DNA of 64,000 nucleotides from Mobula hypostoma (Eukaryota), in contig NC_086097.1 in NCBI RefSeq assembly GCF_963921235.1, forward strand, positions 85,252,001 through 85,316,000, given 5' to 3'. How positions within the stretch are numbered: position 1 is the stretch's first letter; each line of letters opens with the position of its first letter. The position numbers and the translations under genes are program-made. This document shows positions 3,571 through 63,420 of the stretch, piece after piece. The notes below the pieces were generated by a model, which did not search any database, was not told where the DNA came from, and saw only the letters and a list, made by a program, of their open reading frames with translations.

Positions 3571-3688
3571 TTGGGACGAGTTGGAGAGCTTATTCAAAGA
3601 ACTGGTAAATGCAGGGTGAGTTGAATGTTATTGGGTGATTCATTGTGCATTAGATCCGGTCATTAATTCTGCATCCTCTAACTGGCAG

Positions 3689-3788
3689 AGCACAGTGGAT
3701 AAGCTCATAAAGAAGACGAATCTTGCGCTTGTGGTCGGGACACATTCCTGGCGGGATCAGTTCATGGAGGCCATCACAGTCAGTGCAG
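3689..3788 (+). CDS. SLC8A3: Na+/Ca2+ exchanger (SLC8A3/NCX3-like), internal coding exon (100 bp), end of the cytoplasmic loop
   Basis: Acceptor ctggcAG ends at 3688 and donor GTgagg starts at 3789. Translates STVDKLIKKTNLALVVGTHSWRDQFMEAITVSA+g. From recalled NCX sequences, GTHSWRDQFM fits NCX3 better than NCX1 (GTNSWREQFI) or NCX2 (GTHSWREQFL). Phase 1 end joins the next exon in frame. Family assignment is firm; paralog is less so. Confidence 0.92.
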
Positions 3789-3929
3789 GTGAGGTATTTA
3801 TCCAAGTGCATCCGATTTATAGACTGCTTTTAACATAAGCTGTAACTTCTTTTGATCGTGCAAAGTAAAACAGACCTGTGCACCGTCTGCTTGCCTGTAA
3901 CTCATTACAGCAATGGCTCACTGCCGGAG

Positions 3930-14425: not shown

Positions 14426-14653
14426 TAGAATTAGGTTGGGAATGTTCAGAGTTGGGGGGAGATTACTGGCCACTGTAAATTACCACTTTTGTATAGATGA
14501 GTGATGGAACCTAGGATGGTGTGGGGTGGGGGTGGTTGATGATGGGAATGTGGGGAGAATAAAATGGGATAAGAGTAGGATTAGTGTAAGTGGCTGCGGA
14601 ATCAATGGGCCAAAAGGCCTGCATTCTGCAAATGCTGGGGTGAAAGCAACAGA

Positions 14654-14787
14654 AAAAAACACAACATGCTGGAGGAACTCAGCAGGTCAGGCAGCATCCG
14701 TGGAACATGGAGAAACACAACACGCTGGAGGATGCTGCCACAGATGCTGCCCGGCCTGCTGAGTTCCTCCAGCGTGTTGTGTTTTTT
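14654..14787. repeat. Inverted repeat with 50-bp arms built from the PLE terminal sequence
   Basis: Arm 14654-14703 and arm 14738-14787 are near-perfect reverse complements. Confidence 0.85.
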
Positions 14788-16199
14788 CGTGTTGTTTTGG
14801 CCTGCATCTGTACTGCAGGACTCTGTAGATTCACGTTAGTGAGGATGATCCAGCCTTTGGACTGGCATCAGTTCTGAGAAGCTCTATAAAGTCAGAAAGA
14901 TCAAACTGAGACCTGGATAAATCTGAGGAAGAAGTTTCAGGGTTTAGGTACAGAGATTGCTGGAAAGGGATTCAGATTCCAATTAATTTCAGGGAATAAG
15001 TTGCCAGTGTCATGTGCCTGGAAAGGGGTGGGAATTGGGGAGGGAATCACAAGTGGGTGGGGTTCTCAACCTGCCTGAGCAGGTTCTCTTGGAGCATGTC
15101 CAAAGTCTTATATGTGTTTTGGAGGCGTGTTGTCCATGAGTGGGAATGAAAACACAGATGTGGTGACCACATGGGCTCAAACATAATGAATGTTGTAAGC
15201 CCGATCTCAGAGCGTTTCTATATTCGCCTTTTTCCACATAGCATCAGATATCAGTTTTACTATCAAGCCAATATATTAAAAGGATTACAAAGGTGACGTT
15301 AGAGAATTTTTGACAATTGGTGTTACATCCTTTTATAATTGCTTTAGGAACAGAGTAGATCACCAGCTAATCCATTATCAGAGCAGATTGTCATCTGCAT
15401 CCGTTGCACTTTTTGATAACGTGCTCTGTTTATTGGCCCTGAAGCTCAGTGCAGTGTCAAGGCTCTGCAGCACTTGTGTTTCCTCTGGTGGCTCCAGCTG
15501 ATGCAGTTAGTAAATAGCTGGCAAACTTGTGCGAGGGCAATGAGGCACGACACAGGCAGTGATTTCAGCTCTCAAGTACGCCGAAGTGAGAAGAAAATAA
15601 ACTGCATACCACTAATTACTTGCAAGGTTGCTACAGATGAAGTGAATGATAAACACAAGAGATTCTGCAGATGCTGGAAATCCAGAGTAACACACACAGA
15701 ATGTCAGAGGAACTCGGCAGGATAGGCAGCATCTATGGGGAGGAATATGCAATTAGCATTTTGGGCCATGCCCTGGTGACTTTCTGTGTGTTACAGATGG
15801 AGAAGACCACATTTGGCATCATAATCCACCCATCCAATCGGCACATGAAATCTCCATTTTACAATCCTGCCAATGGTTTCACCCCTGCCTATCCTCTAAA
15901 TTCCTCTCGTCTTAAAAACTTCCAAGTTATTTTCACACCTCTAGCTCAGGACATTTGATAATCCCTGAATTCAATCACTCCACCTTTGGAGGGATGTGCC
16001 TTTAGCTCTCAAGTACCTAAACTCCAAAACTTCTTCCCCAGATTCATGCAGGTCTCTGTTTCAACTTTCATAGAGCTGCTCAGAATGGATGTCAGTCCAA
16101 GACTTGGATCATCTCACTAATGTGACTGCACAGAGCCACGCAGTACTGATGCAGGCCTTTTGGTCATTTGAATTTGCACCCATTTCACTATCCTCTCTT

Positions 16200-20705: not shown

Positions 20706-21725
20706 ATGCATAATGATTGCAAAACAATGGCCATTTGGCAGGTCAGTCCATAAACTATCTGATGAGCCGTGACTTCTGGCAGCTGACCTGGTCAGATTCC
20801 CTGAGTGGAGTCTCCATCTCAGTGCTGACATCTGTTGGTGATGGAGCTGTTCACCCTTCCCCCAACCTCATGGCCTAGAGGTCTTACTTTCAAGGTAAAA
20901 CCTCGTCAGTCTTACCAGCTGTCATTGATAATCCCCCTTTGATTTTACACTGAGCTTCATAATCCCCTCCAACCTCCCACCTAACCCTCCACCCTGCTCT
21001 ATCCTCTTTTTGAATTTTAGCCCCTCTCTATCCCCTTGTTTGTCTGCATGTCGTCTGTGCTGGTTTTGTATCATGTTATAAAGTCACAAGTTACAATACG
21101 GTTACTCTAAATAGGAAACTTCATATTTCAATAATTCCTGACCATCTGCTCTCTCTCTTCTTCATTGCATTATGCTGCTCATTTACTGAATGTGCCTGTG
21201 TTGTTCTCATTATTGAACCATGAAATGCCATATTTAAATAAATCGGTAAGTGAGACACAAGGGTTCCAGCACCCTTGGCAGGTATCGTGCCTGCTTTTAC
21301 GCTGGTCCAAAGGCAGCCAGCTGCATTTGTCGCTGATGAATTTTAGTTATTTGCACAGACTGACTTGGCTGGAATTGTTTTCCTTTGAACAAGTGAGACT
21401 GAGGGTACGTTATGTACAAAATGATGAGAGGTCCACACAGGATCTATTTCCATTAACGGTAAAGTCAGCATCAGAGAGAGCATAGACTTAAGGAAATTGA
21501 CAGAAGGAGGCTTTTGGGCATTTGTTTTCATGTGGAGAATTGTGAGTGTCTGGAACTTGCTGCCTGAAAGACAGTGAAGGCTGAAACAATTATGGAGGTA
21601 AGAACCTGAAGTACCAAAACCTGCGAGTGAAAAAGTTAGTTACTTCTGTCAGATTTCTATGATTCTGTGACTACTCCTTGGCCAGACATCATGTTGGATG
21701 TGTGTGTATTATATCTGTGTGTATG

Positions 21726-21864: not shown

Positions 21865-24800
21865 ATAAGACCATAAGACATAGGAGCAGAATTAGGCCAA
21901 TTGGCCTATCGAGTCGACTCTGCCATTCAATCATGACTGATTGTTTTTTTTCAGTCCTCGGTCCAGCTCCCTGACCTTCTCCCCATAACCTTTGATGCCA
22001 TGGCCAATCAAAAACCTATCACGCTCTGCCTTAAATACACCCAACAACCTAGCCTCCACAGCTGCCTGTGTTAAACAAAATTGTACAAATTCACCACCGT
22101 CTGGCTAAAGAAATTTCTCTGCATCTTGGTTTTAAATGGATGCCCTTCTATACTAAGGCTGTGCCCTCTTGTCCTAGACCCTCCCACCATGGGAAACAGC
22201 CTTTCCACATTTACCATGTCTAGGCCTTTCAACATTTGAAAGGCTTCAATGAGACCCTTATCATCCTTCTGAATTCCAGCGAGTACAGACCCAGAGCTAG
22301 TATAAGTTCCTCATATGATTACCCTTTCATTCTCAAAATCATCCTTGTGAACCTCCTCTGGACTTCCTCTAATACCAGCACATTTTTTCTTAGATAAGGA
22401 GCCCAAAACTGTTCACAATACTCAAGGTAAGGTCTCACGAGTGCCTTATAAAGCCTCAGCATCACATCCTTACTCTTGTATTCTAGACCTCTTGAAATGA
22501 ATGCTAACATTGCATTTGCCTTCCCCATGACTGACTCAACCTGCAAGTTAACCTTCAGGGTGTCCTGCACAAGGACTCCCAAAGTCCCTTTGCATCTCAG
22601 ATCTTCTCCCAATTAAGAAAATAGTCTGCACATTTATTTCTGCTACCAAAGTGCATGACCATGCATTTTCCAACATTGTATTTCATTTGCCACTTTCTTG
22701 CCCATTCTCCTAATCTGTCTAAGTCCTTCTGCAGTTTACCTGTTTCTTCAACACTCCCTGCCCCTCCACCAATCTTTGTAACATCCGCAAACTTGGCAAC
22801 AAAGCCATCTATTCCATCATTTAGATCCTTGACATTCAGCATAAAAAGAAGTGGTCCCAACACCGACCCCTGCGGAACACCACTAGTCACTGGCAGGCAA
22901 CCATAAAAGGATCCTTTTATTCCCACTCATTGCCTCTTACCAATCAGCTAATGCTTTAATTATGTCAATAACTTTCCTGTAATACCACAGGCTCTTAACT
23001 TGGTAAGCAGCCTCATATGTGGCACTTTGTCAAAGGCCTTCTGAAGGTCCATGTATATAACATCCACTGCATCCCCTTTATCTATCCTACTTGTAATCTC
23101 TAAGATTTCCGACAGGTTCTTCAGGCAGGACTTTCCCTGAAGGAAACCATGCTGACTTTGTCCTTTCTTGTCCTGTGTCACCAAGTACTCCATAACCTCG
23201 TCCTTAACGATTGACTCCAACATCTTCCCACCTCTGAGATCAGGCTAACTGGTCTATAATTTCCTTTCTGCTCTTTTTGAGCATCTTCTTCCTTGTAATA
23301 GTAACTGCCCTCACTTCCCTTACCCTGCACCCTTCAACATCTGGCACACTGCTAATGTCTTCCACAGTGCAAAATACTCATTTAGTTCATCTGCCATCTC
23401 TTTGTTCCCCATTATTATTTCTCTGGCCTCATTTTCTAGCAATCCTATATCCACTCTCATCTCTCCCTTAGCATTTACTATCCACTTGAATATTGTTTGC
23501 TAGCTTGCTTTCATATTTCATCATTTCCTTCCTAATGATTCTTCTTGTTGCTTGCTGTAGGTTTTTACCTTACTGCTAATTTTCGCATTGTTGTATGCCC
23601 TCTGTTTTGCTTTTTAATCAGCTTTGACTTCCCTTGTCAGCCCCAGTTGTACTATTTTGCCATTTGAGTATTTATTCATCTTTAGAATACATTTATCCTG
23701 CACCTTCCTCATTATTCCCAGAAACATATGCTATTTCTGCTCTGCTGTTATCCCTGCCAGCATCTTCTTCCAGTTTACTTTGGCCAACTCCTCTCTCATA
23801 GCACTGTAATTTCCTTTACTGCACTGAAATACTGCTACATCAGACTTTACTTTCTCCCTATCAAATTTCAAGCTGAACTCAATGATATTGTGATCACTGA
23901 TTCCTAAGGATTCTTTTACCTTAAACTCCCTAATCACCTCTGGTTCATTACATCATACCCAATCCAGTATAACTACACTCCTAGAAGGCTCAATGACAAA
24001 CTGCTCTGAAAAACCATCTCGCAGGCATTCAACAAACTCACTCTCTTGGGATTCATTGCTAACCTGAATTTTCCAATCGACCTACATGTTGAAATCTCCC
24101 ACGACTATCATAAAATTGCCCCTTTGACATGTCTTTTCTATTTCCCATTGTAATCCGTAGTCCACATCCCAGCTACTGCTGGGAGGCTTATATATAACTG
24201 CCATCAGGGTCCTTTTATCCTTGAGGTTTCTTAACTCAACCCACAAGGATTCAGCATCTTCTGATCCTGTGTCACACCTTTCTACTGATTTGATGCCATT
24301 CCTTACCAGCAGAGCCATGCCACCCCCTCTGCCTACCTTCCTATCCCTCCGATACAACCTGTAACCTGTAACCTTGGACATTCAGCTCCCAGCTACATCC
24401 ATCATTCAGCCACGATTCAGTGATGGCCACAACATTGTATCTGACAATCTGTAATAATGCAACAAGATCATCCACCTTATTTCTTATACTCCGTGCATTG
24501 AGATATAACACTTTGAGTATTGCATTTGCTACACTTTTTGATTCTGCATCCCTAATGCACTGATATTCACCCTGCTGGCTGTAATTTTGTCCTATCATCT
24601 ACCTACCCTTCCTGACAGTCTGCCTGCACACTATCTTTGCGATTTTACTGTCCATCCTATCCTGAGTCCCTTCACTCCATTTCCTACCCCCTATCAAATT
24701 AGTTTAAACCCTCCCCAACAGCTTTAACAAACCTGCCTGCAAGAATATTGGTTCCCCTTGGGTTCAGGTGCAACCAGTCACTTTTGAACAGGTCATACGT

Positions 24801-25530
24801 CCCCCAGAAGAGATCCTAATGATCTAAGAGCCTGAAGCCCTGCCCCCTGCACCAGCTTCTTAACCACACATTAATTTGCCAATTCATCCTGTTTCTACCC
24901 TCAGTAGCGCATGGCACAGGCATCAATCCAGAAATTACTACCCTGGAAGTCCTGCTTCTCAGCTTTCTACCTAGCTCTCTAAATTCTCTTTTCAGGACCT
25001 CTTTGCTTTTCCTTCCTGTGTCATTGGTACCAGTATGTATCAAGACATTGGGCTGCTCTCCCTCCCTCTCCAAAATGCTGTGGATGCGATGTTAGAGGTC
25101 CCTGACCCTGGCATCTGGGAGGCAACATACCATTCGGGTGTCCTGTTCGCGTCCACAGAATCTTCTGTCTGTTCCTCTGACGAATGAGTCCCCTATCACT
25201 ACCACTCCCCTCTTCTCCCTCTTTCCCTTCTGCACCACGGACCCATGCTCAGTGCCAGTAACCCAGTCTCCGTGGCATTCCCCAGGGAGGTCATCCCCCA
25301 CAGGGGTACCTCGCGCTAACTGTTGATTCACATTTCCATTTCTCCTGACAGTCAGCTACTCGCCTCCTGCAACTTAGAGGTGACTACTTCCCTGAAACTC
25401 TGATCGATTATCTCCTTCTTCTCCCGTACAAGCTGAAGGTCATCTAGCTGCTGCTCCAGATCCCTAACACGGTCTTCAAGGAGCTGCAGCCGGATGCACT
25501 TCACGCAGATGTACAAACTGTAGTTCCCAG
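21865..25530 (-). mobile_element. Near full-length CR1 LINE (ORF1 coiled coil and SGNH esterase; ORF2 APE and RT), inactive, with internal deletions
   Basis: ORF1: CVKCIRLQLLEDRVRDLE, VVVIGDSFVRG, IHTGTND. ORF2: LYLNARSIRNK, VAITESW, VGDFN, YMDLQKAFDKVPH, VTSGVPQGSVLGP, KFAD. 3' tail at about 21865-21885. Multiple stops and frameshifts. Confidence 0.93.
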
Positions 25531-28159: not shown

Positions 28160-31100
28160 ATTGACTAGTGAAGGTAAATTAAAGGAAGGCAGGGACAAGC
28201 GCAGCAGCCATCATCTGAGTGGACATATCTTGAAGCTTCAGCTCTTCGATGATTTAGTCAGAGAAAGCAAAGGAAAGAAAACATCAACTTTTTTTCATTC
28301 TATTTCTATCTGCTCAGCTAGGGACAGTAGGGATGACAGGCAGGATAGTGAAATGCTCTTCTTGCAGGATGTGGGAAGGCAGGGAGACCTTCAGTGTCCC
28401 TGATGACTACAACTGCGAGAAGTGCATCCAGCTGCAGCTTCTAACAAACTGTGTTAAGGATTTGGAGCTGGAACTGGATGAACTCTGGATCACTCAGGAG
28501 GCTGAATGGTTATAGATAAGACATAGTGTATAGAAAGGTAGTTACACCCAAGGTGCAGGTCACAGGAAACTGGGTAAGAGTCAGGAAGGAGAAAGGGGTT
28601 AACGAGCCAGTGCAGAGTACCTCTATGGCCATACCCCTCAGCAACAAGTATGTTACTTTGGATACTGTTGGGGGGATGACCTAACAGAGGAGAGACACAG
28701 TCGTTGGGTCTCTGGCAGTGAGTCTGCCACTGAGATTCGGAAGGGAAGGGGGGAGAAGAGGCACGCTATGGTGATAGGGGATTTGTTAGGGGATCAAGTC
28801 CTCAGTATTTTTAAGTGGGAGGGTGAACAGCCAGAAGTCATGGTCCATGTAGGTACCAATGATATGGGTAGGACAAGTGATGAGGAGCCCCCAGGATTGT
28901 GGTCTCAGGACCGCTAACCATGCCATATGCTCATGAGGCTAGAACTAGGAAGATTATATAGTTTAATACGTGGCTAAGGAGTTGGTGTAGGGGGGAGGGC
29001 TTCACATTTTTGGATCATTGGGCTCTCCTCTAGGGAAGTTGGGAACTGTACAGAAGAGACAGTTTGCACCTGAACTGGAGGGTGACTAATATACTAGTGG
29101 GAAGGTTTGTTAAACTAGAGTTGCAGAGGGATGGGAACCAGAGTGCCAGAACAGTTAGTGGAGAGGTTGTGGAGGCAGGTATTAGTAAGAACTCAGACAA
29201 AGTGAAGAATCACCAGATTGAGCGCGGTGTGACTAGTGTCCTAAGCTGCCTAAACTTCAGTGCAAGGAGTAGCACAGGAAAGGCAGATAATAGTGCTGAC
29301 GATGAGGTAGATGGTTTCCAAACAGAGACAATATGTAGTGACGAGAGGCTGATAACAGGCAAAATTACAGTGAACAGGATGAGCTGCAACTTAAAAGGAA
29401 GACAAAATTGAAAAGGTTAAATACAGGACAAAAGGTGTTATATCTGAATACGTGCAGTATACTGAATCAGGTTGATGAACTTGCAACATAGTTGTAGATT
29501 GGCAGGTGCAAAGGGACTTTGTGAAAGACTCCCAAAAGGTTAATTCATGGGTTGAGTCTATGGTAAAGAAGGCAAATGCAATGTTGGCAATTATTTCAAG
29601 GGGAAATAGAATATACAAACAAGGAAATAATAATGAAGCTTTATAAAACACTAGTCAGGCTGCTCTTGGAATATTGTCAAGAGCAGTTTTAGTCCTCCTA
29701 TCTCAGAAAGGATGTATTGTCATTGGAGGGAGTCCAGAGAAGATTTGTGAGGATGATTCTGGGAATGAATGGGGTTAACATATGAGGAGTGGTTAGCAGC
29801 TTTGGGCCTGTACTCACTGGAATTTAGAGGAATGCAGGGGGATCTCATTCAAACCTACAGAATGTTGAAAGGTAGAGGATTAACTTCTGGATCAAGTGTT
29901 ATGCAATGAACCAGAATTGATTAGAGAGCTTAAGGTAAAAGAACCCTTGGGGGAAAGTGATCATAATATGATTGAGTTCACCCTGAAATTTGAGAAGGAG
30001 AAGCTAAAGTCAGATGCATCAGTATTATAGTGGAATAAAGGGAATTACAGAGGCATGAGAGAAGAGTTGGCCAGAATCAATTGGAAAAGAACACTGGCAA
30101 GGATGACGGCAGAGCAGCAACGGCTGGAATTTCTGGAAGCTATTCAGAAGGCTCACGATATATACATCCCAAAGAGGAAGAAGTATTCTAAGGGAAAGAT
30201 AACACAACAGTGGCTAGGAAGAGAAGTCAAAGGCAACATAAAAGCCAAGGAGATGGCATATAACAGAGCAAAATTTAGGGGGAAGTTAGTGAATTGGGAA
30301 GCTTTCAAATACCAACAGATGGCAACTAAGAAGTCACTATGAAAGTAAAAGTTGACTTCAAAAGTAAGTTAACCAACAATATTAAAGAGGGCACCAAAAG
30401 TTTCTTCAGATAGATAAAGTGTGAGGCGGGAATGGATATCGGACCGCTGAAAAACAATGCTGGAGAGATAGTAATGGGAGACAACAAAACGGTGGACGAA
30501 CTAAGTAAGTATTTTGCATCAGTCTTCACTGTGGAAGACACTAGCAGTATAGTGGAAGTTCCAGGAGTCAGGGGGCATGAAGTGTGTGAAGATACCATAA
30601 CTCAAGAGAAGGTTCTTGGGAAAATGAAAGGTCTGAAGGTAGATAAGTCGCTTGGACCAGATGGCATACATCAAAGAGTTCTGAAAGAGGTGGTTGAAGA
30701 AATCGTGGAGGCCTGAGTTATGATCTTCCAAGAATCACTAGATTCTGGAATGGTTCTGGAAGACTGGAAAATTGCATATGTCACTCAACAACAAGAAGAT
30801 GTTGGAGTCAATTATTAAGGGTGAGACCTCAGGGTACTTAGACGCATATGATAAAATAGGCCATAGTTAGCATGGTTTCCTCAAGGGAAAATCTTGCCTG
30901 ACAAATTTGTTGAAATTCTTTGAAGAAATAACAAGCAGGATAGATAAAGGAGAATTGGCAGATAAATGTGTGGTTAAGAAGCTGGTGCAGGGGTCAGGGC
31001 TTCAGGTTCTTGGATCATTGGGATCTCTTCTGGGGGAGGTATGACCTGTACAAAAGTGATGGGTTGTACCTGAACCAGAGGGGGACCAATATTTTCGAGG

Positions 31101-32626
31101 GCAGGTTTGTTAGAGCCGTCGGGGAGGGTTTAAACAAATTTGGCAGAGGGATGGGAACTGGAATGAAAGGACGCAGGATATGATGGATGGTAAAAAAGCA
31201 AAGACAGCATGCAGTCAGACTGTCAGGAAGGGTATTCAGATTATAGGACATCGGTTGATGTCGTGTACTTGGATTTTCAGAAGGCCTTTGACAAGGTGCC
31301 ACACATGAGGCTGCTTAATAAGCTACGAGCCCATGGAATTACAGGAAAGATTCTAGCACAAATAAAGCAGTGACTGATTAGCAGGAGGCAAAGAGTAGGA
31401 ATAAAAGGAGCCTTTTCTGGCTGGCTGTGGTGACTAGTGGTGTTCCACAGGGGTCTGTGCTGGAAATGATTCTTTTTATGTTATATGTCAATGATTTGGA
31501 TGATGGAATTGATGGCTTTGTTGAAATGTTTACAGATGAAATGAAGGTAGATGGAGGGGCACATTGTTTGAGGAAGTAGAGAGGCTACTGAAGGCAGATT
31601 AGGAGAATGGGCAAAGAAATGGCAGGTGGAATACAGTGTTGGGAAGTGTGTGATCATGCACTTTGGTAGAAGAAATGTCTATTTTCTAAATGGAGAGAAA
31701 ATACAAATAATTGAGGTGCCAAAGGGACTTGGGAGTCATTGTGCAGGATTCCCTAAAGGTTAATTTGCAGATTGAGTCTGTGGTGAGGAAGCCAAATGCA
31801 ATATTAGCATTCATTTCAAGAGGACTAGAATATAAAAGCAAGGATGTAATGTTGAAACTTTATGAAGCACTGGTGAGGCCTCACAGGGTATTGTGATCAG
31901 GTTTATGTCCCTTATCTTAGAAAGTATGTGCTGAAATTGGAAAGGGTTCAAACGAGATTTACGAAAATTATTCCAGGAATGAATGGCTTGTCATATAAAG
32001 AGCTTTGATGCCTCTGGGCCTGTATTCACTAGAATTCAGTAGAGTGATGGGTGACCTCATTGAAACATATCGAATGGTAAAAGGTGTTGATAGAATGGAT
32101 GTGGAGAGGATGTTTCCTATGGTGGGAGAGTCTAAGACCAGAGGACACAACCTCAGAATAGAGGGGCGTCCTTTTAGAGAAGAAATGAGGAGGAATTTCT
32201 TTAGCCAGAGAGTGGTGAATCTGTGGAAGTTTTTGCCACTGGCAATTGTGAAGCCCAAGTCTTTATCTATATTTAAGGCAGGGATTGGTAGATTCTTGAT
32301 CTGTCAGGGCATGAAGGGCTATCGGGAGAAAGCAGGCGATTGGGGCTGAGAGGAAAATTGGATCAGCCATGATGAAATGGTGGAGCAGACTCAATGGGCC
32401 AAATGGCCTAATTCTGCTCCTATATTTATTGCCATGGGCGGCTGTGGAAGACAGGTCATTGGGCGTATTTAAGGCGGAGGTTGATAGGTTCTTGATTAGT
32501 CAGGGCGTGAAAGGTTACAGGGAGAAGGCAGGAGAATGGGGTTGACAGGGAAATGGATTAGACATGATCAAATGGCGGAGCACACTCGATGGCACTAATT
32601 CTGATCCTGTGTCTTATGGTCTTATA
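28160..32626 (+). mobile_element. CR1 LINE complex, rearranged and mosaic, with a duplicated 3' end
   Basis: ORF1 zinc-binding start VKCSSCRMWE...CEKCIQLQLL; KYFASVFTVED; LDFQKAFDKVPH; TRGHNLRIEGRPFREEMRRNFFSQRVVNLW; tail (tcttatgg). Confidence 0.9.
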
Positions 32627-35088: not shown

Positions 35089-35508
35089 GGAACTCTGGAA
35101 TTTAGAAGATTGAGGGGGGATCTTATTGAAACATATAAAATCCTAAAGGGATTGGACAGGCTAGATGCAGGAAGATTGTTCCCGATGTTGGGGAAGTCCA
35201 GAACGAGGGGTCACAGTTTGAGGATAAAGGGGAAGCCTTTTAGGACCGAGATGAGGAAAAACTTCTTCACACAGAGCGTGGTGAATCTGTGGAATTCTCT
35301 GCCACAGAAAACAGTTGAGGCCAGTTCATTGGTTATATTTAAGACGGAGTTAGATATGGCCCTTGTGGCTACGGGGATCAGGGGGTATGGAGGGAAGGCT
35401 GGTACAGGGTTCTGAGTTGGATGATCAGCCATGATCATACTGAATGGCGGTGTAGGCTCGAAGGGCCGAATGGCCTACTCCTGCACCTATTTTCTATGTT
35501 TCTATGTT
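35089..35508 (+). mobile_element. Young 5'-truncated CR1 (HER1-like) LINE 3' end
   Basis: Uninterrupted frame LEFRRLRGDLIETYKILKGLDRLD...RTRGHSLRIKG...FFTQSVVNLWNSLP to the stop at 35415; tail (tttctatg)n. Confidence 0.9.
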
Positions 35509-36739
35509 TTTAATTGTTAGTGACAGAGCAATGCATCAGTGTATGGGGTGTCCAGGACGGGTTAGTACCCCTGGTGAAGGGGCTTGTCGTGTCCATTCTG
35601 GGGCAGCTCACTTACCTTTGGTCCCTACCGGACACTCAGCTTTCACCTGTGGCTCCAAGTAGCTGTTTGTGCGCAACAGCGGTCACACTGCGGTACGCTG
35701 GTTCGACAGGCAGACTAAACCAGGTGAAGGTAGCTAGCAGCCCTGGTGAGATGGAGACATGCCTGTCCCAGCATGTGAAGTCTGCTCCATCTGACTGGAG
35801 CACCAAATTGTAGATAATTTCATCCATCAGGCATAAAAGTTGAACTTGCCTTTCATGGGCAGAATGTTGAGTGCCTTTTCAAATATCTTATAATTAGTTA
35901 ACTATTTCCAAGTTATTATGCAATCTGGACATTTGAGACTTTATTTATGTTAGCCAAATGCTAGATTCAATGTGGTGAGATAAATGTGAAATGTCAGTTG
36001 GTTGGCTATGTTATCCTAAGATCACCTCACACCCACTGAGGCAAGAAGACATTCGTGGTGTGAAAACATCAGGGGAGATGCATCCTCACTCCAGTTAATT
36101 CACTCCAGTGAATGCACAATATTTACAGCTTTCAGTTCATTACAATGGGTTACTGTATCAACGGATTCTACCTCTCACGCCAGAGGCCAATTAACCAACC
36201 AACCCGTCCAACTTCGTGGTGTAAGTAAAATAGGAGCACCTGGAGCAAACACACGTCATCACAGGGAGAACTCCAAACAGATAGCACTGCAGGTGGATTG
36301 AGTTGTTAGGCAGCAGCTCTGTTGAACTCCTTGATCTTTGCTAATAATAGTTTCCTGCTGAGTACCAGAACCCTTAGCGCTAAGATGTTTCTTCGGACCC
36401 CAGGATAAATATCAAGAGCTGCAGTGATAAGGATTTCTGCCAACAACAGGTCATTAAGTGAGTAACACAGGGGAGGTTATTTAATTAGTTACACAGGAAA
36501 ATATGGACTCAACAAGAGAGGAGCAGGATTGGACTTTGACCCACCAGCCAGGGTTCATCTACTCTTCTCTGCAAGTTCACTGTAGCCCTCAGTCAGAATC
36601 AGATTTATTACTACTGGCATATGACACAAACTTTGTTGTTTTGCAGGAGCAGAAAAAACATAAAAATTTATAAATTACAAAAGATAAACATTGCAAAAGA
36701 AAAGAAATAATGAAACAGTGCTGCTGTGTTCTCCTAACC

Positions 36740-37071: not shown

Positions 37072-37447
37072 TTCTAGCCTGTGGACAGATTCCAAATCTG
37101 TGTTTATCTATGGAATCTGTCCCATCCATGCTTGAGTAATCCTGACTCGCCATGGCATTCTGGTGACTTTACAAATTGTGAGTCCTCACTGGCGTACAAT
37201 GCACTTCCCTTATCTTCAATCTGCTTGGCTTCCTTTCACTGTACGTTTACAGATAACTAGCAACACTGGGGACATGGGAAGCTTCCTAGAAAAGAACATT
37301 TTCATGTGCAATTCTGTTCCATATAATTGTAACTGAAAAAAAGATATCATCCGAAATAATACAGGTGCCAGCCATGCAAGCCTCTTGCTCAGTGATAGCC
37401 CATTGTCTTGTTCTGAATTAATCATTGATATAGAAGTCTGTGTTTCA

Positions 37448-38215
37448 GAGCAACACACAAAATGCGGAGGAACTCAGCAGGTCAGGCAGCATCCATGGAA
37501 ATGAATAACTAGTCAACGTTTTGGGCTGAGACCCTTCTTCGGGACTAGAAAGGAAGGAGGAAGATACCAGAACAAGGTGGGGGGGGATGGGGAAAGAGGA
37601 CTGGCTAGAGGGTGATAGGTGAAGCCAGGCAGGTGAGAAAGCTAGAGGGTTGGAGAGGAAGAAATCTGATACAAGAGGAGAGTGGACCATTGGAGAAAGG
37701 GAAGAAGGAGAGGCACTGGGGGAGGTGATAGGCAGGTGAGGAGAAGAGATAAGGGGCCCAAGTGGGGAATAAAAGGGAAAAACATTCCCTTTTCCAGGGA
37801 AGGAAGCTGGAAAAAAATTACTGTACGGAGAAATTGACATTCATACCATCAGGCTGGAGACTACCTAGACAGAATATGAGGTGTTGCTCCTCCACCCTGA
37901 GGGTGGCCTCATTGTGGCAAATTTGGGACATGTCGGAATGGGAATGGGGATAGGAATTAAAATTGTTGGCCACTGGAAAGTTCTGCTTTCTGCAGATGGA
38001 ACAGAGGTGCTCGGCACGTTGCTGCTCCCTACTTTGGGTCTCACCAATGTAGAGGAGATGGCATCAAGACCACCGGATACAATAGGTGACCCCAACGGAT
38101 TCACAGGTGAAGTGTTGCCTCACCTGGAAGAACTGTTTGGGGCCCAGAGTGGAGGTGAGGGAGGAGGTGAATGGGCAGGTGTAGCATTTCTGTTGGTGGC
38201 AGGGGTATGTGGCAG
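37448..38215 (-). mobile_element. Penelope-like element 3' fragment
   Basis: Collinear with 39485-40286 (terminus, purine-rich UTR, degraded GIY-YIG region). Confidence 0.8.
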
Positions 38216-38739
38216 GAGGGAGAATAGTGTTTCATGCTATTTTTTAAGCTATTTTAAAAGCCGACCAAGACTATCAATGACTCTTCTTCATGTGAACTTC
38301 CACTTATATGGCATTTATGACTGTACTTTACAAATAAATACCTTTGCATACAATCACTTACCATGTAACAAAGGTGACAGCTGATAAGGCAAAGTTCAAA
38401 GTAAATTTATTAAAGTACATATATGTCACTTTACACAACTCAGAGATTCATTTTCATTAATAGAAGCAATGAAGGACTGCACGAACCGTGTGCAAAAGAC
38501 AACATCGATTTATTGGCGGATGTCATAGCAAGGACTGGCCTCAAGCGTGGTGTCACCCGTTTGCAGCTGCCCAGGAGGGAGGTGCGCTCCACCGGAGTGG
38601 TGTGGGGGTGGGCGGTGTGGCATCCAAGCTGGAGTTGGTGCTGCAGCCCAGTGTTTGCTTAAGCATTCGACTGCAGACCGCCGCAACATTCATGGACTCA
38701 AGGTCTTGGACTATATATTTTTTGTGTGACTGTATTTTG

Positions 38740-39128: not shown

Positions 39129-39230
39129 TATATGAGTTGGATGATCAGCCATGATCATAATAAATGGCGGTGCAGGCTCGAAGGGCCGAATGGCCTACTC
39201 CTGCACCTATTTTCTATGTTTCTATGTTTC
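39129..39230 (+). mobile_element. 102-bp CR1 (HER1-like) 3' tail insertion with a 9-bp TSD
   Basis: TSD tatatgtgc at 39120-39128 and 39231-39239. About 3 mismatches to 35413-35508. Confidence 0.85.
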
Positions 39231-39484
39231 TATATGTGCCTTTTGCTGTGTATGTTTGTTGGCATTGTATTTTGTATCTTGGCCCTGGAGTAATGCTATT
39301 TCATTTGGCTGTATTCATGTTTGGTTTAATGACAATTAAGCTTGAGAATTAAATAAATAAATAAGTAAATAAATGAATGAATGAGCAATAAATATCAAGA
39401 ACATGATGAAGAACTCTTTAAAGTGAGTCCATAGGTTGTGGAAACAGTTTCGTAATGGGGCAAGTGAAAATGAGTGAAGTTATC

Positions 39485-40286
39485 TGTCAAACATGAGGAA
39501 ATCTGCAGATGCTGGAATTTCAAGCAACACACATAAAAGTTGCTGGTGAACGCAGCAGGCCAGGCAGCATCTATAGGAAGAGGTACAGTCGACGTTTCGG
39601 GCGGATATCCTTCGTCAGGACTAGCTGAAAGAAGAGCAAGTAAGAATTTGAAAGTGGGTGAGGAGGGGGAGATCCGAAATGATAGGAGAAGACAGGAGGG
39701 GGAAGGATTGAACAAGGAGCTTGACAGTTGATTGGCAAAAGGGATATGAGAGGATCATGGGACAGGAGGCCTAGGGAGAAAGAAAGGGGGAGTGGTGAAG
39801 CCCAGAGGATGGGCAAGGAGTATAGTGAGAGGGACGGAGGGAGAAAAAGGAGAGAGAGAAAAAGAATAGATATATAGAATAAATAAATAACAAATGGGGT
39901 ATGAGAGGGAGGAGGGGCATCAACAGAAGTTAGAGAAGTCAATGTTCATGCCATCAGGTTGGAGGCTACCCAGACAGAATATAAGGTGTTGTTCCTCCAA
40001 CCTGAGTGTGGCTTCATCTTGGCAGTAGAGGAGGCCGTGGATAGATATATCAGAATGTGAATGGGACGTGGAATTAAAATGTGTGGCCACTGGGAGACCC
40101 TGCTTTCTCTGGCGGACAAAGCGTAGGTGTTCAGCGAAACGGTCTCCCAGTTTGCGCCGGGTCTCGCCAACATATAGAAGGCTGCATCGGGAGCACCGGA
40201 CACAGTATATCACCCCAGCCAGCTCACATGTGAAGTGTCGCCTCACCTGAAAGGACTGTCTGGGGCCCTGAATAGTAGTGAGGGAG
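39485..40286 (-). mobile_element. Penelope-like retroelement, 5'-truncated, with an open GIY-YIG endonuclease frame
   Basis: ORF FTC...GVIYCVRCSRCSLLYVGETRRKLGDRFAEHL...VATHFN...RLEEQHLIF.LGSLQPDGMNIDF shows VIY...YVG with CxxC between them and conserved R, E and N. Flanking duplication gaagttatc at 39476-39484 and 40287-40295. Confidence 0.9.
39587..39622 (-). ncRNA. Minimal type I hammerhead ribozyme motif in the PLE terminus
   Basis: Minus strand reads AGUC-CUGACGA-aggauauccgccc-GAAAC-GUC-GACU: core boxes intact, stem I AGUC/GACU, loopless palindromic ACGU stem III. Confidence 0.75.
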
Positions 40287-41259
40287 GAAGTTATCCCTTC
40301 TGGTTCAAGAGGCATTGTTTGAAGAGGTGGTAAGGATCTTTTAGAGTTTATATTTTCGGCTGATTGACAGCATCTCCAACAGTCCAGCATTGTTTCAGTA
40401 TGAGGGTGGAGTGTCAGCCAGGATTACTTGCTCAGACCTATGGAGTGAGGCTTGAGTCTGCACTCTGGTTGTGAGGTACAGTCAGTAATGCTGCTGCTTG
40501 TTTGACAGCTTTCTGTAGGGCTGACTGAAGTAGTTCTTGGATCATTTGATACCTTTCTATTTCCATTGTTTACTTTACTCATTTAATGGCAAGCATATCA
40601 TTCTCTGTGAGACTTCATAAACACTTGGATTATTTGAAGTGGATGCAACAGCAATTTAAGTAAAGCAATGACTTTATAACAGATGTTCCAATACCTTGGC
40701 AACAGCTTTGGGACTATACTGAGAGCTTCAGAAAAATTAAAGCTGACAGGGTGGATGGCAAGATGAAAAGCTCAAAACCCATACATTCCAATGGCATTTT
40801 TTAAAAAAGAATTACGTATTTGCTTTGTCTTTCTGCCTTTGTCTCTCCTTCTCTTCTGAAGGTGGTTATCCACAGGCACTGTCTGACCTCCAGTGCCTCA
40901 TAGGTGGGAGAAGGTAAGGGACAGCAAGTTGTTGAATTGTAGAGGAAAGTCCCTGCCTTGACTAGGCCTCCACTCAGTGTGGCCTTTGCAGATGGTAGCC
41001 AGAATTTGCTGCCCTCCAGTCAGTGGAACGTGAGGTTGTTATTACAATTTGTTTGGGGGGAAGGAGGTGGGACGGGTGTGTGAGGAGGGTAGAGTTATTC
41101 TGCTCGCCAGTGCTTATGTAGATGCAGTTGGTTCTGCTCTTTCAGTTCCACAGTCAATGTGTGGAAGTAACGATAACCATCTCCCCTTTGGTAAGCCTTG
41201 CCCCTTGCTGTCTTCCATCTGGGTGTAGATCATGTCATAGAAGGAGCAAGAAAACCACA

Positions 41260-41690
41260 CTTAGCAGGTCAGGCAGAATCTGCACTGGGAAACAGATAGT
41301 CAATATTTTGGGCCAAGACCCTTCATCGGGACTGAACGGGCAGAGGGGAGAAATCCAGTATAAAGATGTGAGTAGGATAAGAGCTGGCAAGCAAAGGGTG
41401 GATCCATGTTAGGTGGAGTGGCTGGCAGATGGAGTCAGGTGGGCAGGGAAGCTCGTGACAGAAGCCGGGAAGTGGAGGCAACAAAGGGCTGCAGATGATG
41501 TAATCTGAGAAGGAAAGAACGTCGACCAAGGAGCCAAATAAGGGTAGTGGGGAGGGGAGCACATCACTTTCGCCCACCTATTGTTTGCCAGCTCTTGCTC
41601 CAGCCAACCCCCTCATTTTATGTCAGCAATGTCCCTTCTGACTTACAGTCCAGATGAAGGATATTAGCCCAAAACATCTGTTGTCCTTGT
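41260..41690. mobile_element. Inverted pair of degraded PLE termini just upstream of the exon at 41881
   Basis: gagctggcaagcaaagggtgg (41381-41401) pairs with ccacctattgtttgccagctc (about 41574-41594). Decayed hammerhead motifs at both outer ends. Confidence 0.6.
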
Positions 41691-41880
41691 GTCAGCTATA
41701 TGAGCAAACATACTGGTCTGTCTTCATTGGCTCCACACTACCAAAAGTGTACCCCTCCATTCCACAGCCATGACATTGCATTGGAGGTATTCCCATGAGT
41801 CCCACTTGCTTTTGTCCTGTCTGATTCCCTGCTGACTTAACTGACCTTCCACCCCAACCAAACTCTGCTATTTCTGCCAG

Positions 41881-42153
41881 GTGATGAAGAAGATGAAGAT
41901 ACAGGGGAGGAGAGGCTGCCTTCATGCTTTGACTACGTGATGCACTTCCTGACCGTCTTCTGGAAGGTTCTGTTTGCCTGCGTACCACCCACTGAATATT
42001 GGAATGGCTGGGCCTGCTTTGTAACGTCCATTCTCATCATTGGCATCCTGACAGCCATCATTGGAGATCTGGCCTCTCACTTTGGTTGCACCATTGGCCT
42101 GAAAGATTCAGTCACTGCTGTGGTATTTGTAGCTCTTGGCACCTCTGTACCTG
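41881..42153 (+). CDS. SLC8A3: Na+/Ca2+ exchanger (SLC8A3-like), penultimate coding exon (273 bp), TM segments and first part of the alpha-2 repeat
   Basis: Pyrimidine-rich acceptor tttctgccAG ends at 41880 and donor GTaagt starts at 42154. Encodes (G)DEEDEDTGEERLPSCFDYVMHFLTVFWKVLFACVPPTEYWNGWACF...GDLASHFGCTIGLKDSVTAVVFVALGTSVP. Phase 1 at both ends, in frame with both neighbours. Confidence 0.95.
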
Positions 42154-46530: not shown

Positions 46531-47009
46531 GGTCAGGAGTCAGCACAGGCCTTTGGGCTGAATACCTCCTTTCTGTGTGGTTACAATCATGAAACAAGAT
46601 TGGGCGTATTCTGGGTTTTTCACTGAAGAACGGATGAAGCTCAGTTGCAGATTTCCGGAGAGCGACAGATGAATTGGTGGAAAGGGCAGAGACATAGCTG
46701 ATGTAGTACAGAGAATTGTGTTAAAACATCCTGGATGGTAAAACACGGGGAGTCAATTTAACTAAATAGTTCAATTGCAGAAGAGAGTGTGGGTAGAGAG
46801 GAAATGTGGAGTGGGAACTGGGGAGCAGCATCAGAAGAGGCCCAAGTTTGAGGGATCAGATATAACACCACAACTTCATATATTCAAAGTGAAAATGTAA
46901 GTAACTCATTTTCCCAATCACTATTTTTGGGCTCACTTCAGCCAATGAATGTAAAAGTTTTTTTTACCTACTCCTGTTTTGATCTGCTGCACCTTGTGTT
47001 ATCCCACAG

Positions 47010-47386
47010 ATACCTTTGCCAGCAAAGTGGCAGCCTCACAGGACTACTATGCAGATGCCTCCATCGGGAACGTCACTGGAAGCAATGCGGTCAATGTTTT
47101 CCTGGGCATTGGATTGGCGTGGTCTGTTGCTGCCATCTACTGGGCATCCCAGGGCAAGGAGTTCCGAGTGGAAGCAGGCACCCTGGCCTTTTCTGTCACT
47201 CTCTTCACCATCTTTGCTTTTGTCAGCGTGAGCATCCTGCTGTACAGGAGGCGGCCGCACATCGGGGGAGAGCTTGGGGGTCCGCGGGGACCCCGCATTG
47301 CCACCGCCGCATTATTTGGTGGATTGTGGTTACTATACATTCTGTTCTCTTGTTTGGAAGCCTACTGCTATATAAAGGGGTTCTAA
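47010..47386 (+). CDS. SLC8A3: Na+/Ca2+ exchanger (SLC8A3-like), last coding exon to the stop codon
   Basis: Acceptor atcccacAG ends at 47009; g+at gives Asp, completing GTSVPD. Encodes DTFASKVAASQDYYADASIGNVTGSNAVNVFLGIG...RRRPHIGGELGGP...LEAYCYIKGF with TAA at 47384-47386, the typical NCX C-terminus. Confidence 0.95.
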
Positions 47387-54761: not shown

Positions 54762-54887
54762 CAAACATGAGGAAATCTGCAGATACTGGAATTTCAAGCA
54801 ACACACATAAAAGTTGCTGGTGAACGCAGCAGGTCAGGCAGCAAGAGAGATACAGTCGACGTTTTGGGCCGAGACCCTTCGTCAGGA
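54762..54887 (-). mobile_element. PLE terminal fragment ending at a hammerhead motif
   Basis: Nearly identical to 39489-39620. Minus strand CUGACGA-agggucucggccc-AAAAC-GUC (GAAA changed to AAAA). Confidence 0.8.
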
Positions 54888-56984
54888 AGTTTGTCAATCA
54901 TAGAATGATGATCCTTTACATGGGAAGGTTCACTACTGAGAACTGTGGGTTGTAGGTTAATTTTGAGGAAATGGCCCTGGGTGGTAGAATCTGGGAGCAG
55001 TTGATGGGGGAATGTGGGGTGAATAAATTGGGATTAATGTAAATTGTCACTTGCTAATTGTAGACTTGGTGGACAGAGGGCCATCTATCTAATGTAGTAA
55101 TTTTATTATGCCTACTATTTTGTACAAATATACAGGCAGACAATTCGAGGTGACTGGATTTTTGCTACTTCTGTTTTGAAAAGTCACAGGCAGAGATTCT
55201 TAATATTTAGGGAGGGAATTTTAACAAGGCTATCAATATACGTACTGTAAATTGTTTATCAAAATCAGGAAGCAACCAAAGATGGAAATCTGAAGCAGAA
55301 AATGCTGGAATTGTTCAACAGTTATTTGTGGATGGAAAAATGAGCTAATGCTTTAGGATGAAGACGGTTCATTGGAACTGGGAAAGAAAGAAACATTGGG
55401 GATAAAACTGGTGTGAGGTTGTGGGGGGAAGATGGGGATAAAGTAGACCCATGTACCTCCTTCACTAATGTATTCCTTTTAATCTATCTGGCTAGCCAAA
55501 CTTGGGTTATCAGCAGTATCAAACTCCCAAAATCTGGGGGGGGGGGGGATCTCTGTAAATCAGATGGAACCTGTTCTTTTTGCAGTAAGATACAAAAGCC
55601 TGAAAGAACATAACACCAGATACGAGGGCAGCTTCTACCCTGCTGTTATAAGACCATTGAGTCATTCCTTAGTATGAAAAAATGGATGTTGACCTCACAA
55701 TGTACCTCAGTGTGACCTTGCACCTTACTGTCTACCTGCACTGCACTTTCTCTGTACTGTAACACTTTATTCTGCACACTTATTGTCTTACCTTGCACTA
55801 CACCAATGCATTGCTGTAATGAATTGATTCATAGGATGGTATGCAATATGTTTTTCACTCTACATGGAACAATAATAAATCAACTCACCAATTTAATCAC
55901 CAAGCACTCTTCAAATTCACTGTCAACCTCCTTGCTGTAGGGCACCTAAAATAGAATTGTTTTGGCTGTCAACAGCAAATTGTGCTCCTCTAGAATCCAA
56001 GGTGCCATTGTCCAATTGTCTTCTGTATTTACATACTTACAGAAGCAAACCTGAATATCAATCCAAGAGAATCCATAGAGAAAACCATCCAGCTAAAAAA
56101 ACAGCTCAGACCACGTGCTCACACCAATGCCACTTTCATCATCTGAAATGACAACTTTTTTTGCTGAAACAATAAACGGTTTTTTGATTGTAAAAGGTAG
56201 ATTAAGTTTGACTTGACATTTATAAATAATAAATGTAACATGTCATTGTAACCTTGGCTCTCACCATTGGAATACTTGATGAAGCAGGAATCAAACAATT
56301 AATTACACTGGCGCATCAAACGTTGAGGCGACTTTGGCGCTCTTGCCAACCCAGCCATCAGTATCAAGCCCATCAGTGCCAGTTTTCACCTTTGTAAGTA
56401 AGGTAGAAAGCAAGGTGAAGACAACCAGTTGAGAGGGGCAGGCACTGAACCGCACAGCTCAAGACAACAGGATATATGGCAGCAAAGGGAAAGCAAGCAG
56501 GGATTCAGTTGTGTGAAATAATATTAGCACTTGTATCTCAACTGCACCCACTCAGTTATGGATGACCCAAAATAACTGTTAATAAGCTGTACAATGTTGT
56601 TAACATACAACATAGTAAGGCTCTTCGGCCCTCGACGTTTTGCCAACTTTGTAGCCAACTCTTAAGTTCAACCTAACCCTTACCTCCTGCATAGTCCTCC
56701 ACTTTTCTACCAAACACATGCTTATTAAGTGTTTCTTAAATGTCCCTGTTGTATCAGCCTCTACCACCACTCCTAGCAGAGCATTCTACTATTCTTTGTG
56801 TAAAAAAAAACTTACTTCTGTCATCTCCCCCCCCAAGCATTCCTTCAATCACCTTAAATCTCCTTTGCATCCTCTCTAAAGTTTCCACATCCTTTCTATA
56901 ATGAGGCAACCAGAACGGAACACAATATTCCAAATATGGTCTAACCAGAGTTTTATAGTGCTGAAATATTACTTCATAGCTCTT

Positions 56985-59900
56985 AGGCCATAAGATATAT
57001 AGGAGTAGAGTTCAGCCATTTGGTCCATTAAGTCTGCTCCACCATTTCATCATGGCTGATCCATTTCCCTCTTAGCTCCAACCTTCTTCTTTCTTCACGC
57101 ATCTCTTCATGCCCTGACTAATCAAGAATCTATCAACCTCTGCCTTAAATATTCCCCATGGCTTGGCCTCCATGTCATTGGAGATCCAAAGGGGCCCAAG
57201 ACTGCTCATGATACTCCAAGAGTGGCATGACTAATGCCTTGTAAAGCCATCACATCCTTGCTTTTATATTCTAGTAATCTCAAAATGAATGCTAACATTG
57301 CATATGTCTTCCTTACGACCATCTCAACTTGCAAGTGAACCTTTGGAAACCTTTGCATGAGGAGTCCTTTTGCATCTCTTATTTCTGAATTTTCTCCCCA
57401 TTAGAAAATACTACACTTTTGTTCCTTCTACCAAAGTGCATGACCATACAATTCCCTACACTATATTCCATCTGGCACTAGTTTTACCCATTCTCCTAAT
57501 CTGTCTAAATCCTTCTGCAGACTCACTACTTCCTCATCAGTTCCTGCCCCTCCACTTATCTTCATATTTTCCACAAACTTAGCCACAAAGCCATCAATTA
57601 CATCATCAAAATCATTGACATACAACACAAGAAGAAGCTGCCCCAACAGCAACACCTGTGGAACATCACTAGTCACGGGCAGCCAACTAGAAAAGGCTCC
57701 CTTTATTCCCATGCTTTGCCTTCTGCCAGTCAGCCACTGCTTTATCTATGCTAGTATCCTTCCTGTAGCATGGGCTCATATCTTGTTAAGTTGCCTCATG
57801 TAAGCACCTTGTCAAAGGCCTTTTGAAAATTTAACTACACACCATCCATCGATTCTCCTTTGTCCATCCTGCTTGTTATTTCTTCAAAGAATTCCAACAG
57901 ATTTGTCAATCAAGATTTTCTCTTAAGGAAACCATGCAGACTATGGCCTATTTTATCATGTGCCTTGAAGTACCCCAAAGCCACGTCCTTAATAATCGAC
58001 TCCAACATCTTCCCAGACACTGAGGTCATACTAACTGGCCTATAATTTCCTTACTTCTGCTTGTCTCCCTTCTTGAAGAGTGGAGTGACATTTGCATTTT
58101 CCAGTCTTATGTAACCATGCAAGAATACGCTGATACTTGAAAGATCATTATCAATGCCTCCACAATCTCTTCAGCCACCTCTTTCAGAACCATGGAATGT
58201 GGACTATCTGGTCCAGGTGACTTATATACCTACAGACCTTTCAATTTCCGAAGTACCTTTGCCCTAGTAATGGCAACTTCACACATTTCAGCCCTCTGAC
58301 ACTCTCAGCTTCTGGCAAACTGCTGGTGTCTTCCACATCGAAGGCTGATGCAAAATAATTATTCAATTCATCTGTCTTTTCCTCGTCCCCCATTACTACC
58401 TCTCCAACATCACTTTCCAGTGGTCCAAAATCTACTCTTGCCTCTCTTTTACACTTTATACATCTGAAGATACTTCTTGTATCCTCTATTTAAATTATTG
58501 GCTAGATTACCTTCATATTCCATCTTCTCCCTCTTTATGACTCTTGTTGTTGCATTCTGTTGGTTTTTAAAATCTTCCCAATCCTGCAACTTCCCACTAC
58601 TTATAGCTCTATTACATACCCTCTTTGGCTTTTATGTTGGCTTTGACTTCTCGTCAGACACAGCTGTGTCATCCTGCCTCTAAAATGCTTAGAATACTTC
58701 TTTTTTGGGATGTATCTATCCTGTGCCTTCCGAATTGCTCCCAGAAATTCCAGCCATTGCTGCTCTGCCATCATCCCTGCTAGTGTTCCCTTCCAGTCAG
58801 TTTTTAGCCAGCTGCTCTCTCATGCCTCCAATTCCCTTTACTCCATTGTATTACTAATAGATCAGACTTTAGCCTCTTCTCAAATTGTAGGGTGAATTCT
58901 ATCATATTATCACCACTGACCCTTAAGGATTTCTTTACCTTAAGCTCTCTGATCAATTCTGATTCATTTCACAACACCCAGTCTAGAATAACTGATCCCC
59001 TAGCAGGCTCAACCATATGCTGCTTTAAAAAGCCATCTCGTAGACATTTTAGAAAGTGCCCTCTTGGGATCCATCACCAACCTAATTTTTCTATTCTACC
59101 TGCATATTGAAAACCCCCATGACTTTCGCAACATTGCCCTTCTTACATGCATTTTCTACCTCCTGTTTTAATTTACAGACCACCTCTTTACTACTGTTTG
59201 AGGTCTGTATATAAATCCCATCAGGGTTGTTTTACCCTTGCAGTTCTTTAGCTCTGTCCACAATGATTCTACACCTTCTGATCTGATGTCACCTCTTTCT
59301 AATGACTTGATTTCATTTTTGTTTAAAACCAACAGAGTCATGCCACCCCCTTTGTCTACCTGCCTGTCCCTTCAATACGATGTGTATCTTTGGACATTAA
59401 CCTCCCAGTTGTAATCTTCTTTCAGCCACAATTCAGTGATGCCCATAACACCATAGGTACCAATCTGTAACTGTGCCACAAGTTCATCTACCTTATTCCG
59501 TATGCTGCGTGTATTCATATATAACATCTTCGGTCCCATATTCATCACTCTTTTCAATTTTGTCCCCATTTTCCATTGCACTGCAATTTTGCTCTATCTG
59601 CAGCTTTTCACTTCTAGCAGACTTACTGCACACTGCCTCTGCTTGTAAACCAACTACCCCGTCCTTAGCCCTATCACCCAATTTCCATCTCCCTGCTAAA
59701 TTAGGTTAAACTTTCCCGAATAGTTCAAGCAAACCTGCCCATAAGGATACTGGTCCCCCTCAGGTTTAGGTGTAACACATCCTTTTTGTACGGGCCATAC
59801 CTTCCCCAGAAAAGATCCCAATGATCCCGAAATCTGAAACCCTGCCCCCTGCACCAGTTCCTCAGCCACGCATTCATGTGCCAGGTTATCCTTTTCTTAC

Positions 59901-60250
59901 CCTCACTAGCACGTGGCACAGGCAGCAATCCAGAGATTATTACCCTGGTCTTCCTGATCTATTCTGCTAAATATGTAATCTCTTATCATTACTGCAGTCC
60001 TCTTCAAGTCTCTTCTGAGCCACAGCACCAGACTCAGTGCCAGAGACCCAGTTGCTGTGGTAGGTTGTCCCCCTCAACAGTATCCAAAGTGGTAAACTTA
60101 TTATTGAGGGGAAAGATCACAGGGGTACTCTGCATTTCCCTTCCTCCTCCTGACAATCACCCAGTAACCTACCTCCTGCAACCTAGGGATGACTGTCTCC
60201 GTGTAGCTCCTAACAATCACTTCCTCAGTCTCCCATACAAGCTGAAGGTC
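56985..60250 (-). mobile_element. Near full-length degraded CR1 LINE
   Basis: ORF1 NAWLRNWCRGQGFRF.DHWDLFWGR; APE YMNTRSIRNKVDEL and GITELW; RT PVTSDVPQ; 3' tail near 56990. Confidence 0.9.
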
Positions 60251-63320: not shown

Positions 63321-63420
63321 CCTATAGTTTTCTCTGTACCCATATTTCCATACATTTACATTTCATCAGACATAGAAGCTGATTAGTGTATCAGTCTGTT
63401 GCACACAACGTTTTTCCCTA

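Follow-up and report, generated by a model that had tools for sequence, protein, structure and literature searches.

The 36-nt motif at positions 39587..39622 (minus strand) of the 64-kb window, the whole stretch of Mobula hypostoma DNA analyzed here, is very probably a minimal type I hammerhead (min-HHR). It lies in the terminal repeat of a 5′-truncated Neptune-type Penelope-like element (PLE) that is inserted antisense in an intron of SLC8A3, where this 39.6 kb copy is likely an inert passenger. The copy is considered likely inert because it lies on the wrong strand, has a weak stem II and has no intact neighbor. Cleavage can, however, survive in hammerheads whose stem II is reduced to two pairs; this, the complete core and full stem I of the 39.6 kb copy and the predicted persistence of its two stem II G-C pairs keep inertness short of proof. 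The ray Neptune-type family that carries the motif is very abundant, and self-cleavage as a step in processing its transcripts is plausible.

On re-reading, the letters at 39622-39587 (minus strand) agreed exactly, over all 36 nt, with those given in the original prediction. Both boxes, the GUC triplet, stem I and the ACGU stem III named there were confirmed, with 11 of 11 core positions intact. In the numbering of the 36-mer, all on the minus strand, the 5′ arm of stem I (39622-39619) is followed by the C3-A9 box (39618-39612), an extra A between positions 9 and 10.1 (39611), stem II with loop II (39610-39599), G12 (39598), A15.1 (39595), C17 (39591) and the 3′ arm of stem I (39590-39587). 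The palindromic, loopless helix III, ACGU, occupies 39595-39592 and would pair only with a second copy of the motif according to the dimer model (PMC4209133). Stem I forms all four of its four pairs in a type I topology, the G10.1-C11.1 pair is present (G at 39610, C at 39599), and the predicted cut site, after GUC, falls between 39591 and 39590.

The element itself is 802 bp in length, 5′-truncated and of Neptune type, and occupies positions 39485-40286 on the minus strand. Its 3′ ORF remnant (39920..40291, minus strand), with 122 open codons, contains a GIY-YIG endonuclease with CCHH residues and is truncated so that it begins just after the Zn-finger linker, the RT and the linker both being absent from the 39.6 kb copy. 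The GIY-YIG domain was matched by PF01541 with an E value of 1.8e-4 and 22.2 bits, just below the cut-off of 22.6. The hammerhead motif follows 300 nt behind the GIY-YIG stop on the same strand, and is in turn followed by a downstream tail (39485..39586, minus strand) that forms the 3′ end of the insertion; this tail is common to other window copies, and contig loose ends fall at 39488-39489. The insertion is bounded by a 9-bp target-site duplication on the minus strand, with the 5′ copy GATAACTTC at 40287..40295, partly overlapping element sequence, and the 3′ copy at 39476..39484. The chance level of such a duplication is given by the 26 of 20000 random window pairs that share a 9-mer. Two short repeat pairs were also observed at the 3′ flank of the element, one beside it (39133-39232 and 35413-35512, 96% identical) and another adjoining it (39328-39479 and 14099-14249).

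Thirteen longer relatives of the endonuclease remnant were found among 105 candidates. The best are Hypanus and Mobula proteins, 86-88% identical, and the next are sea-urchin proteins with 47-48% identity. The CX4CX2C linker is present in relatives P0002-P0007 and P0010 and in the window copy at 37.4-38.2 kb. RT is represented among the relatives by RVT_1 matches below cut-off in P0010 and P0014 and by a YIDD motif in P0002-P0004, and the CCHH residues occur in the relatives as well. A CX2-5CxxC linker between RT and EN is the mark of Neptune and Nematis elements, in which EN is a C-terminal GIY-YIG domain (PMC8557442). Read in this way, the family is an EN+ Penelope-like element, assigned to the Neptune type by its linker motif rather than by a tree; Nematis, in which a reduced linker is found, is a possible alternative. 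The proposal that the motif lies at the end of a Penelope-like element is accordingly borne out by the GIY-YIG remnant, the ray PLE relatives and the copy profile. Identity as a non-LTR retrozyme was rejected, given that an ORF remnant is attached and that no tandem array with hammerhead units was found among the six TRF rows.

SLC8A3 (NCX3) is a sodium/calcium exchanger gene. The element-bearing intron is preceded by a coding exon at 3659..3793 (82% to P0017 residues 662-706) and followed by one at 41880..42152, and the last coding exon lies at 47009..47386; the second and third of these match Mobula NCX3 at 100%, and all three are on the plus strand. Because the element is antisense within this intron, SLC8A3 pre-mRNA bears the complement of the motif and not the ribozyme.

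Min-HHRs in the pLTRs of metazoan Penelope-like elements were described by Cervera and De la Pena in 2014 (PMC4209133), and the original assignment to a minimal type I hammerhead of the PLE kind holds in that the architecture matches the consensus in Fig. S3 of that paper. Likenesses to these published motifs are the type I topology, the CUGANGA and GAAA boxes, the extra base between 9 and 10.1, the G10.1-C11.1 pair, a palindromic loopless helix III, a short stem I of the 3-5 bp class, a U-rich 5′ flank and a position 3′ of the ORF in 5′-truncated copies (PMC4209133). The Acropora Neptune motif in the same paper shares a 4-bp stem II with a tetraloop, the CGUC core and the same boxes, and one Xenopus motif is a close look-alike, with the same boxes, the CGUC core and a stem II in the 4-5 bp range. 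Schistosoma motifs differ in having a stem II of 7-8 bp, in contrast to 4 bp in the ray family, where the third pair is broken in the 39.6 kb copy (PMC4209133). In Drosophila virilis, an intron of Penelope overlaps the hammerhead and splicing is documented, whereas the ray spacer is intron-like by sequence only (PMC4209133).

Among vertebrate elements, Poseidon PAc from Anolis carolinensis (Frangieh et al. 2024, PMC11167929) is likewise an EN+ PLE with a pLTR hammerhead followed by an insertion-ending tail. Poseidon is, however, a clade without the Zn-finger linker that the ray family possesses. PAc is moreover full length and its cleavage has been assayed, being protein-assisted and dispensable for insertion in vitro, whereas the ray family is known from sequence alone (PMC11167929). 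Elements of the Neptune clade resemble the ray family in their C-terminal GIY-YIG with CCHH and, as far as the ray relatives are concerned, in the linker and upstream RT; the 39.6 kb copy differs in having neither RT nor linker and in being flanked by a clear 9-bp target-site duplication instead of a microsatellite (PMC8557442). Non-LTR retrozymes also carry type I hammerheads related to those of PLE pLTRs and are reported from one sampled chondrichthyan genome, but they are head-to-tail tandem units without an ORF, whereas the ray copy is solitary and joined to an endonuclease remnant (bioRxiv 10.64898/2026.07.22.740005).

The stem II and loop II region of the 39.6 kb copy (39599..39610, minus strand) keeps two G-C pairs, but its third pair (39608/39601) is an A-C mismatch. 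Three of four pairs are formed, and the one broken pair is accompanied by two loop changes (39606 and 39603), which create an 8-nt palindrome. The original prediction had described stem II as mutated relative to a copy at 54.86 kb. The difference is real, comprising 39608, 39606 and 39603, with pairing affected at 39608 alone; the 54.86 kb copy is nevertheless no intact reference, since its G12 is replaced by A and the two leading letters of stem I are missing from it. This second copy (54762..54887, minus strand; 126 bp) belongs to the same subfamily, has the family-type stem II and starts right after the stem I AG, and no target-site duplication longer than 5 was found around it. At 39608 and 39606 the family majority letter differs from the 39.6 kb copy in 91-99% of aligned contig depth, and a contig loose-end line at 39602 reads the stem II of the 54.9 kb type. 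The stem II hairpin is predicted at +0.7 kcal/mol in the 39.6 kb copy, where it is closed by two pairs, versus −3.7 kcal/mol for the family type as found in the 54.9 kb copy. These energies make a weakening of the 39.6 kb copy likely and, with its orientation antisense to the host gene, support the earlier suggestion that it may be inactive.

The first two stem II G-C pairs have a predicted probability of about 0.8 in the isolated 36-mer versus 0.35 with 60-nt flanks, and both fall within a predicted hairpin that joins the core strand to the cleavage triplet. The homodimer of the 39.6 kb copy is predicted at −5.9 in the hammerhead arrangement versus −22.6 as an extended duplex, the latter being helped by the new 8-nt palindrome, and the 54.9 kb copy also favors the duplex (−27.1 versus −7.7 for the hammerhead dimer); nearest-neighbor energies leave out core contacts, so that the hammerhead fold is understated in these comparisons. 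The stem II and loop changes could represent neutral decay after insertion or could mark a minor subfamily. The latter reading is raised because a copy at 41.65 kb has two of the three changes and because up to 9% of the depth of run X1 is non-majority at those two sites. That copy (41647-41682, plus strand) is older and more diverged, and the resemblance could reflect a minor subfamily or chance.

An nhmmer profile built from eight window copies returned 20 matches in the 64-kb window, the eight included. Fifteen of the 20 were scored for the core, five tail-only matches being left out; G12 was counted in 11 of these 15, leaving out four gapped, out-of-register copies; and pairs were examined for covariation in the five ungapped window copies. 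The 39.6 kb copy is the only one of the 15 in which the core is intact at 11 of 11 positions, and it also has a full stem I. An A occupies G12 in eight of the 11 alignable copies. G12 follows C11.1 and forms a CpG with it, which is the likely reason that most copies lose G12, a substitution (G12A) that slows hammerheads more than 500-fold (PMC2553840). The copies nearest to the 39.6 kb motif, 1.7-2.0 kb away, have G12A plus other core changes. One older Neptune-type copy, at 37440-38228 (minus strand), shares the orientation of the 39.6 kb element, from which it lies 2 kb downstream, and keeps the CX4CX2C linker, its hammerhead bearing U4C and G12A. Changes on both sides of a pair, as expected from compensation, were found in none of eight pairs across the five window copies, a comparison of low power; in these same ungapped copies 87.5% of the cells are paired, versus 0-50% when the pairing is slid. 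Because no compensatory change occurs among the five copies, the structure is supported by its likeness to published motifs and not by covariation.

The abundance of the family is apparent in public sequencing runs, contigs from 4 of the 24 listed runs being aligned to 39380-40400: 191,639 and 121,666 contig pieces in two DNA runs and 14,573 and 10,136 in two others, with summed depth not read as copy number. These alignments contain no pile-up of ends, a feature that contigs do not register. At least 33 of the 802 element positions differ from the aligned contig majority. The motif pattern was found at no locus in metagenome, viral and prokaryote contigs, and protein-based scans gave 87, 29 and 42 pattern matches, none of which proved to be a relative.

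Several other features were observed in the window. Two element tails lie inverted about 30 bp apart at 14623-14812, forming a long hairpin that draws spurious Rfam miRNA-type matches. A second, larger repeat family is present in several pieces that are 68-86% identical (21880-24954, 29519-32592 and 56979-59956); a Pfam RVT_1 match at 22600-22926 (minus strand; E 3e-8) makes it likely that this family consists of decayed LINEs. A weak Rfam match to a CPEB3/HDV-like ribozyme at 21596-21678 (plus strand; 22.1 bits against a gathering threshold of 35, E 0.23) is most likely due to chance.

It is scarcely credible that the motif at 39622-39587 itself resembles a hammerhead by chance. Taken by themselves, the two boxes do occur at chance frequency in the window (nine matches versus 7.35 expected, with 30 of 100 shuffles reaching nine). 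The Rfam check suggested with the original prediction gave 14 window matches up to E 10 with no hammerhead among them, and shuffled versions of the 36-mer fold just as well as the motif (z −0.70), the z-score of the tail being likewise not significant. The full minimal-hammerhead descriptor, which comprises both boxes, a palindromic helix III of at least two letters, UH, four of four stem I pairs and at least two stem II pairs, tells against chance, in that it was found in one of three candidates and in none of 200 dinucleotide shuffles, the motif being its only match within the 64-kb window. The motif also sits in the pLTR behind a GIY-YIG domain, the published location of PLE hammerheads, and the four traits in PMC4209133 that lie outside the descriptor and can be read from the copy or the family are all at least partly present. 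Position and descriptor match together rule out chance resemblance. Box matches at 20888-20909, 23106-23124 and 63345-63369 were rejected as hammerheads on account of failing stems. It is highly improbable that the host has retained the 39.6 kb copy for ribozyme activity at the SLC8A3 locus, whether to cut an RNA there or to regulate one. It is the sole copy of the 15 with both an intact core and an intact stem I, and a contig carrying a second species label (run X5 record 32, 40264-40400) extends from single-copy flank into the element with five differences; it contains only 23 element-specific letters, below the 31-letter threshold, and hints weakly at an insertion common to both species. 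Yet the motif is on the wrong strand for SLC8A3 pre-mRNA, its stem II is mismatched, the window holds no intact partner motif, and with a divergence of only a few percent all 11 positions would be expected to survive. Host exaptation was rejected on these grounds of strand, stem II, partner absence and low divergence.

We therefore return to the inert passenger as the preferred reading, under which the RNA of a parent element would have been copied by target-primed reverse transcription, with an early stop leaving 802 bp that then decayed neutrally after insertion. In a tandem transcript of the parent, two motifs would pair via the palindromic ACGU, thereby forming helix III, and cleavage would take place 3′ of GUC. 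This cleavage would likely be slow or weak and would likely depend on assistance from the RT-endonuclease protein that the element encodes, since in the free RNA the core strand is predicted to pair with the cleavage triplet. A stronger version of the original prediction would have routine, RNA-only self-cleavage as dimers, needed in the life cycle of the family, and is one that we regard as doubtful. In its favor, the 39.6 kb copy has a palindromic helix III and every core position, dimeric and trimeric Schistosoma min-HHR constructs cut at a low but detectable level, and the motif is kept across PLE clades (both PMC4209133). Conversely, the Anolis PLE motif is reported to remain uncut without protein, its catalytic mutants insert normally in vitro and RNA-seq ends are absent at its cut site (PMC11167929), while Naiad and most Chlamys PLEs are described as spreading without canonical HHRs (PMC8557442). 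The predicted extended duplexes of free-RNA dimers also argue against it, as does the 54.9 kb copy, whose start coincides with the 5′ boundary of the motif and not with the cut site, albeit in this one case. A different use of that boundary, which we consider unlikely, is offered by the pLTR spacer (39621..39924, minus strand), an intron-like stretch of 304 nt, 79% pyrimidine, running from a GT near the ORF stop to an AG within stem I. If the spacer were an intron, its acceptor would supply the AG with which stem I opens. A further step, to which we give similarly low credence, is that spliced and unspliced RNAs would then differ in a stem I arm, the short copies that begin after the AG deriving from spliced RNA. 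All three of the checked copies in which upstream sequence survives have a pyrimidine tract that ends in AG directly before a conserved TCC; a GT lies at the ORF stop, exactly where RefSeq model P0005 exits the element frame; the 54.9 kb copy starts immediately after the AG; and the D. virilis Penelope intron ends at helix I (PMC4209133). Against this, no joint of that size is present among the 15 of 474 joints listed, from runs whose RNA label is a guess, a U-rich upstream sequence is a general trait of min-HHRs (PMC4209133), and the start of a single copy is weak evidence that stalling at the structure would explain equally well. Loose ends at 39622 in a run guessed to be RNA were rejected as signs of splicing, their purine-rich, low-agreement consensus (0.45) indicating the spacers of other subfamilies. 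Inclusion of element pieces in the RefSeq ray gene models P0005 and P0014 suggests exonization.

No published report of a min-HHR in the ray Neptune-type family was found in a search of mostly non-subscription literature, and cartilaginous fish are missing from the list in Fig. S3 of PMC4209133. The finding extends min-HHRs to this family, the motif class itself having been described in 2014. Taken by itself it is of small significance, as it concerns one worn, antisense, intronic copy. Should the spacer prove to be an intron, splicing would switch stem I and fix where short copies start at their 5′ end; given so many copies, what hammerheads do in PLEs could then be tested with nothing more than genome and RNA-seq data. 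The 39.6 kb copy is unsuited to the purpose, but through its abundance the family offers a good set of natural mutants for examining the role of hammerheads in Penelope-like elements.
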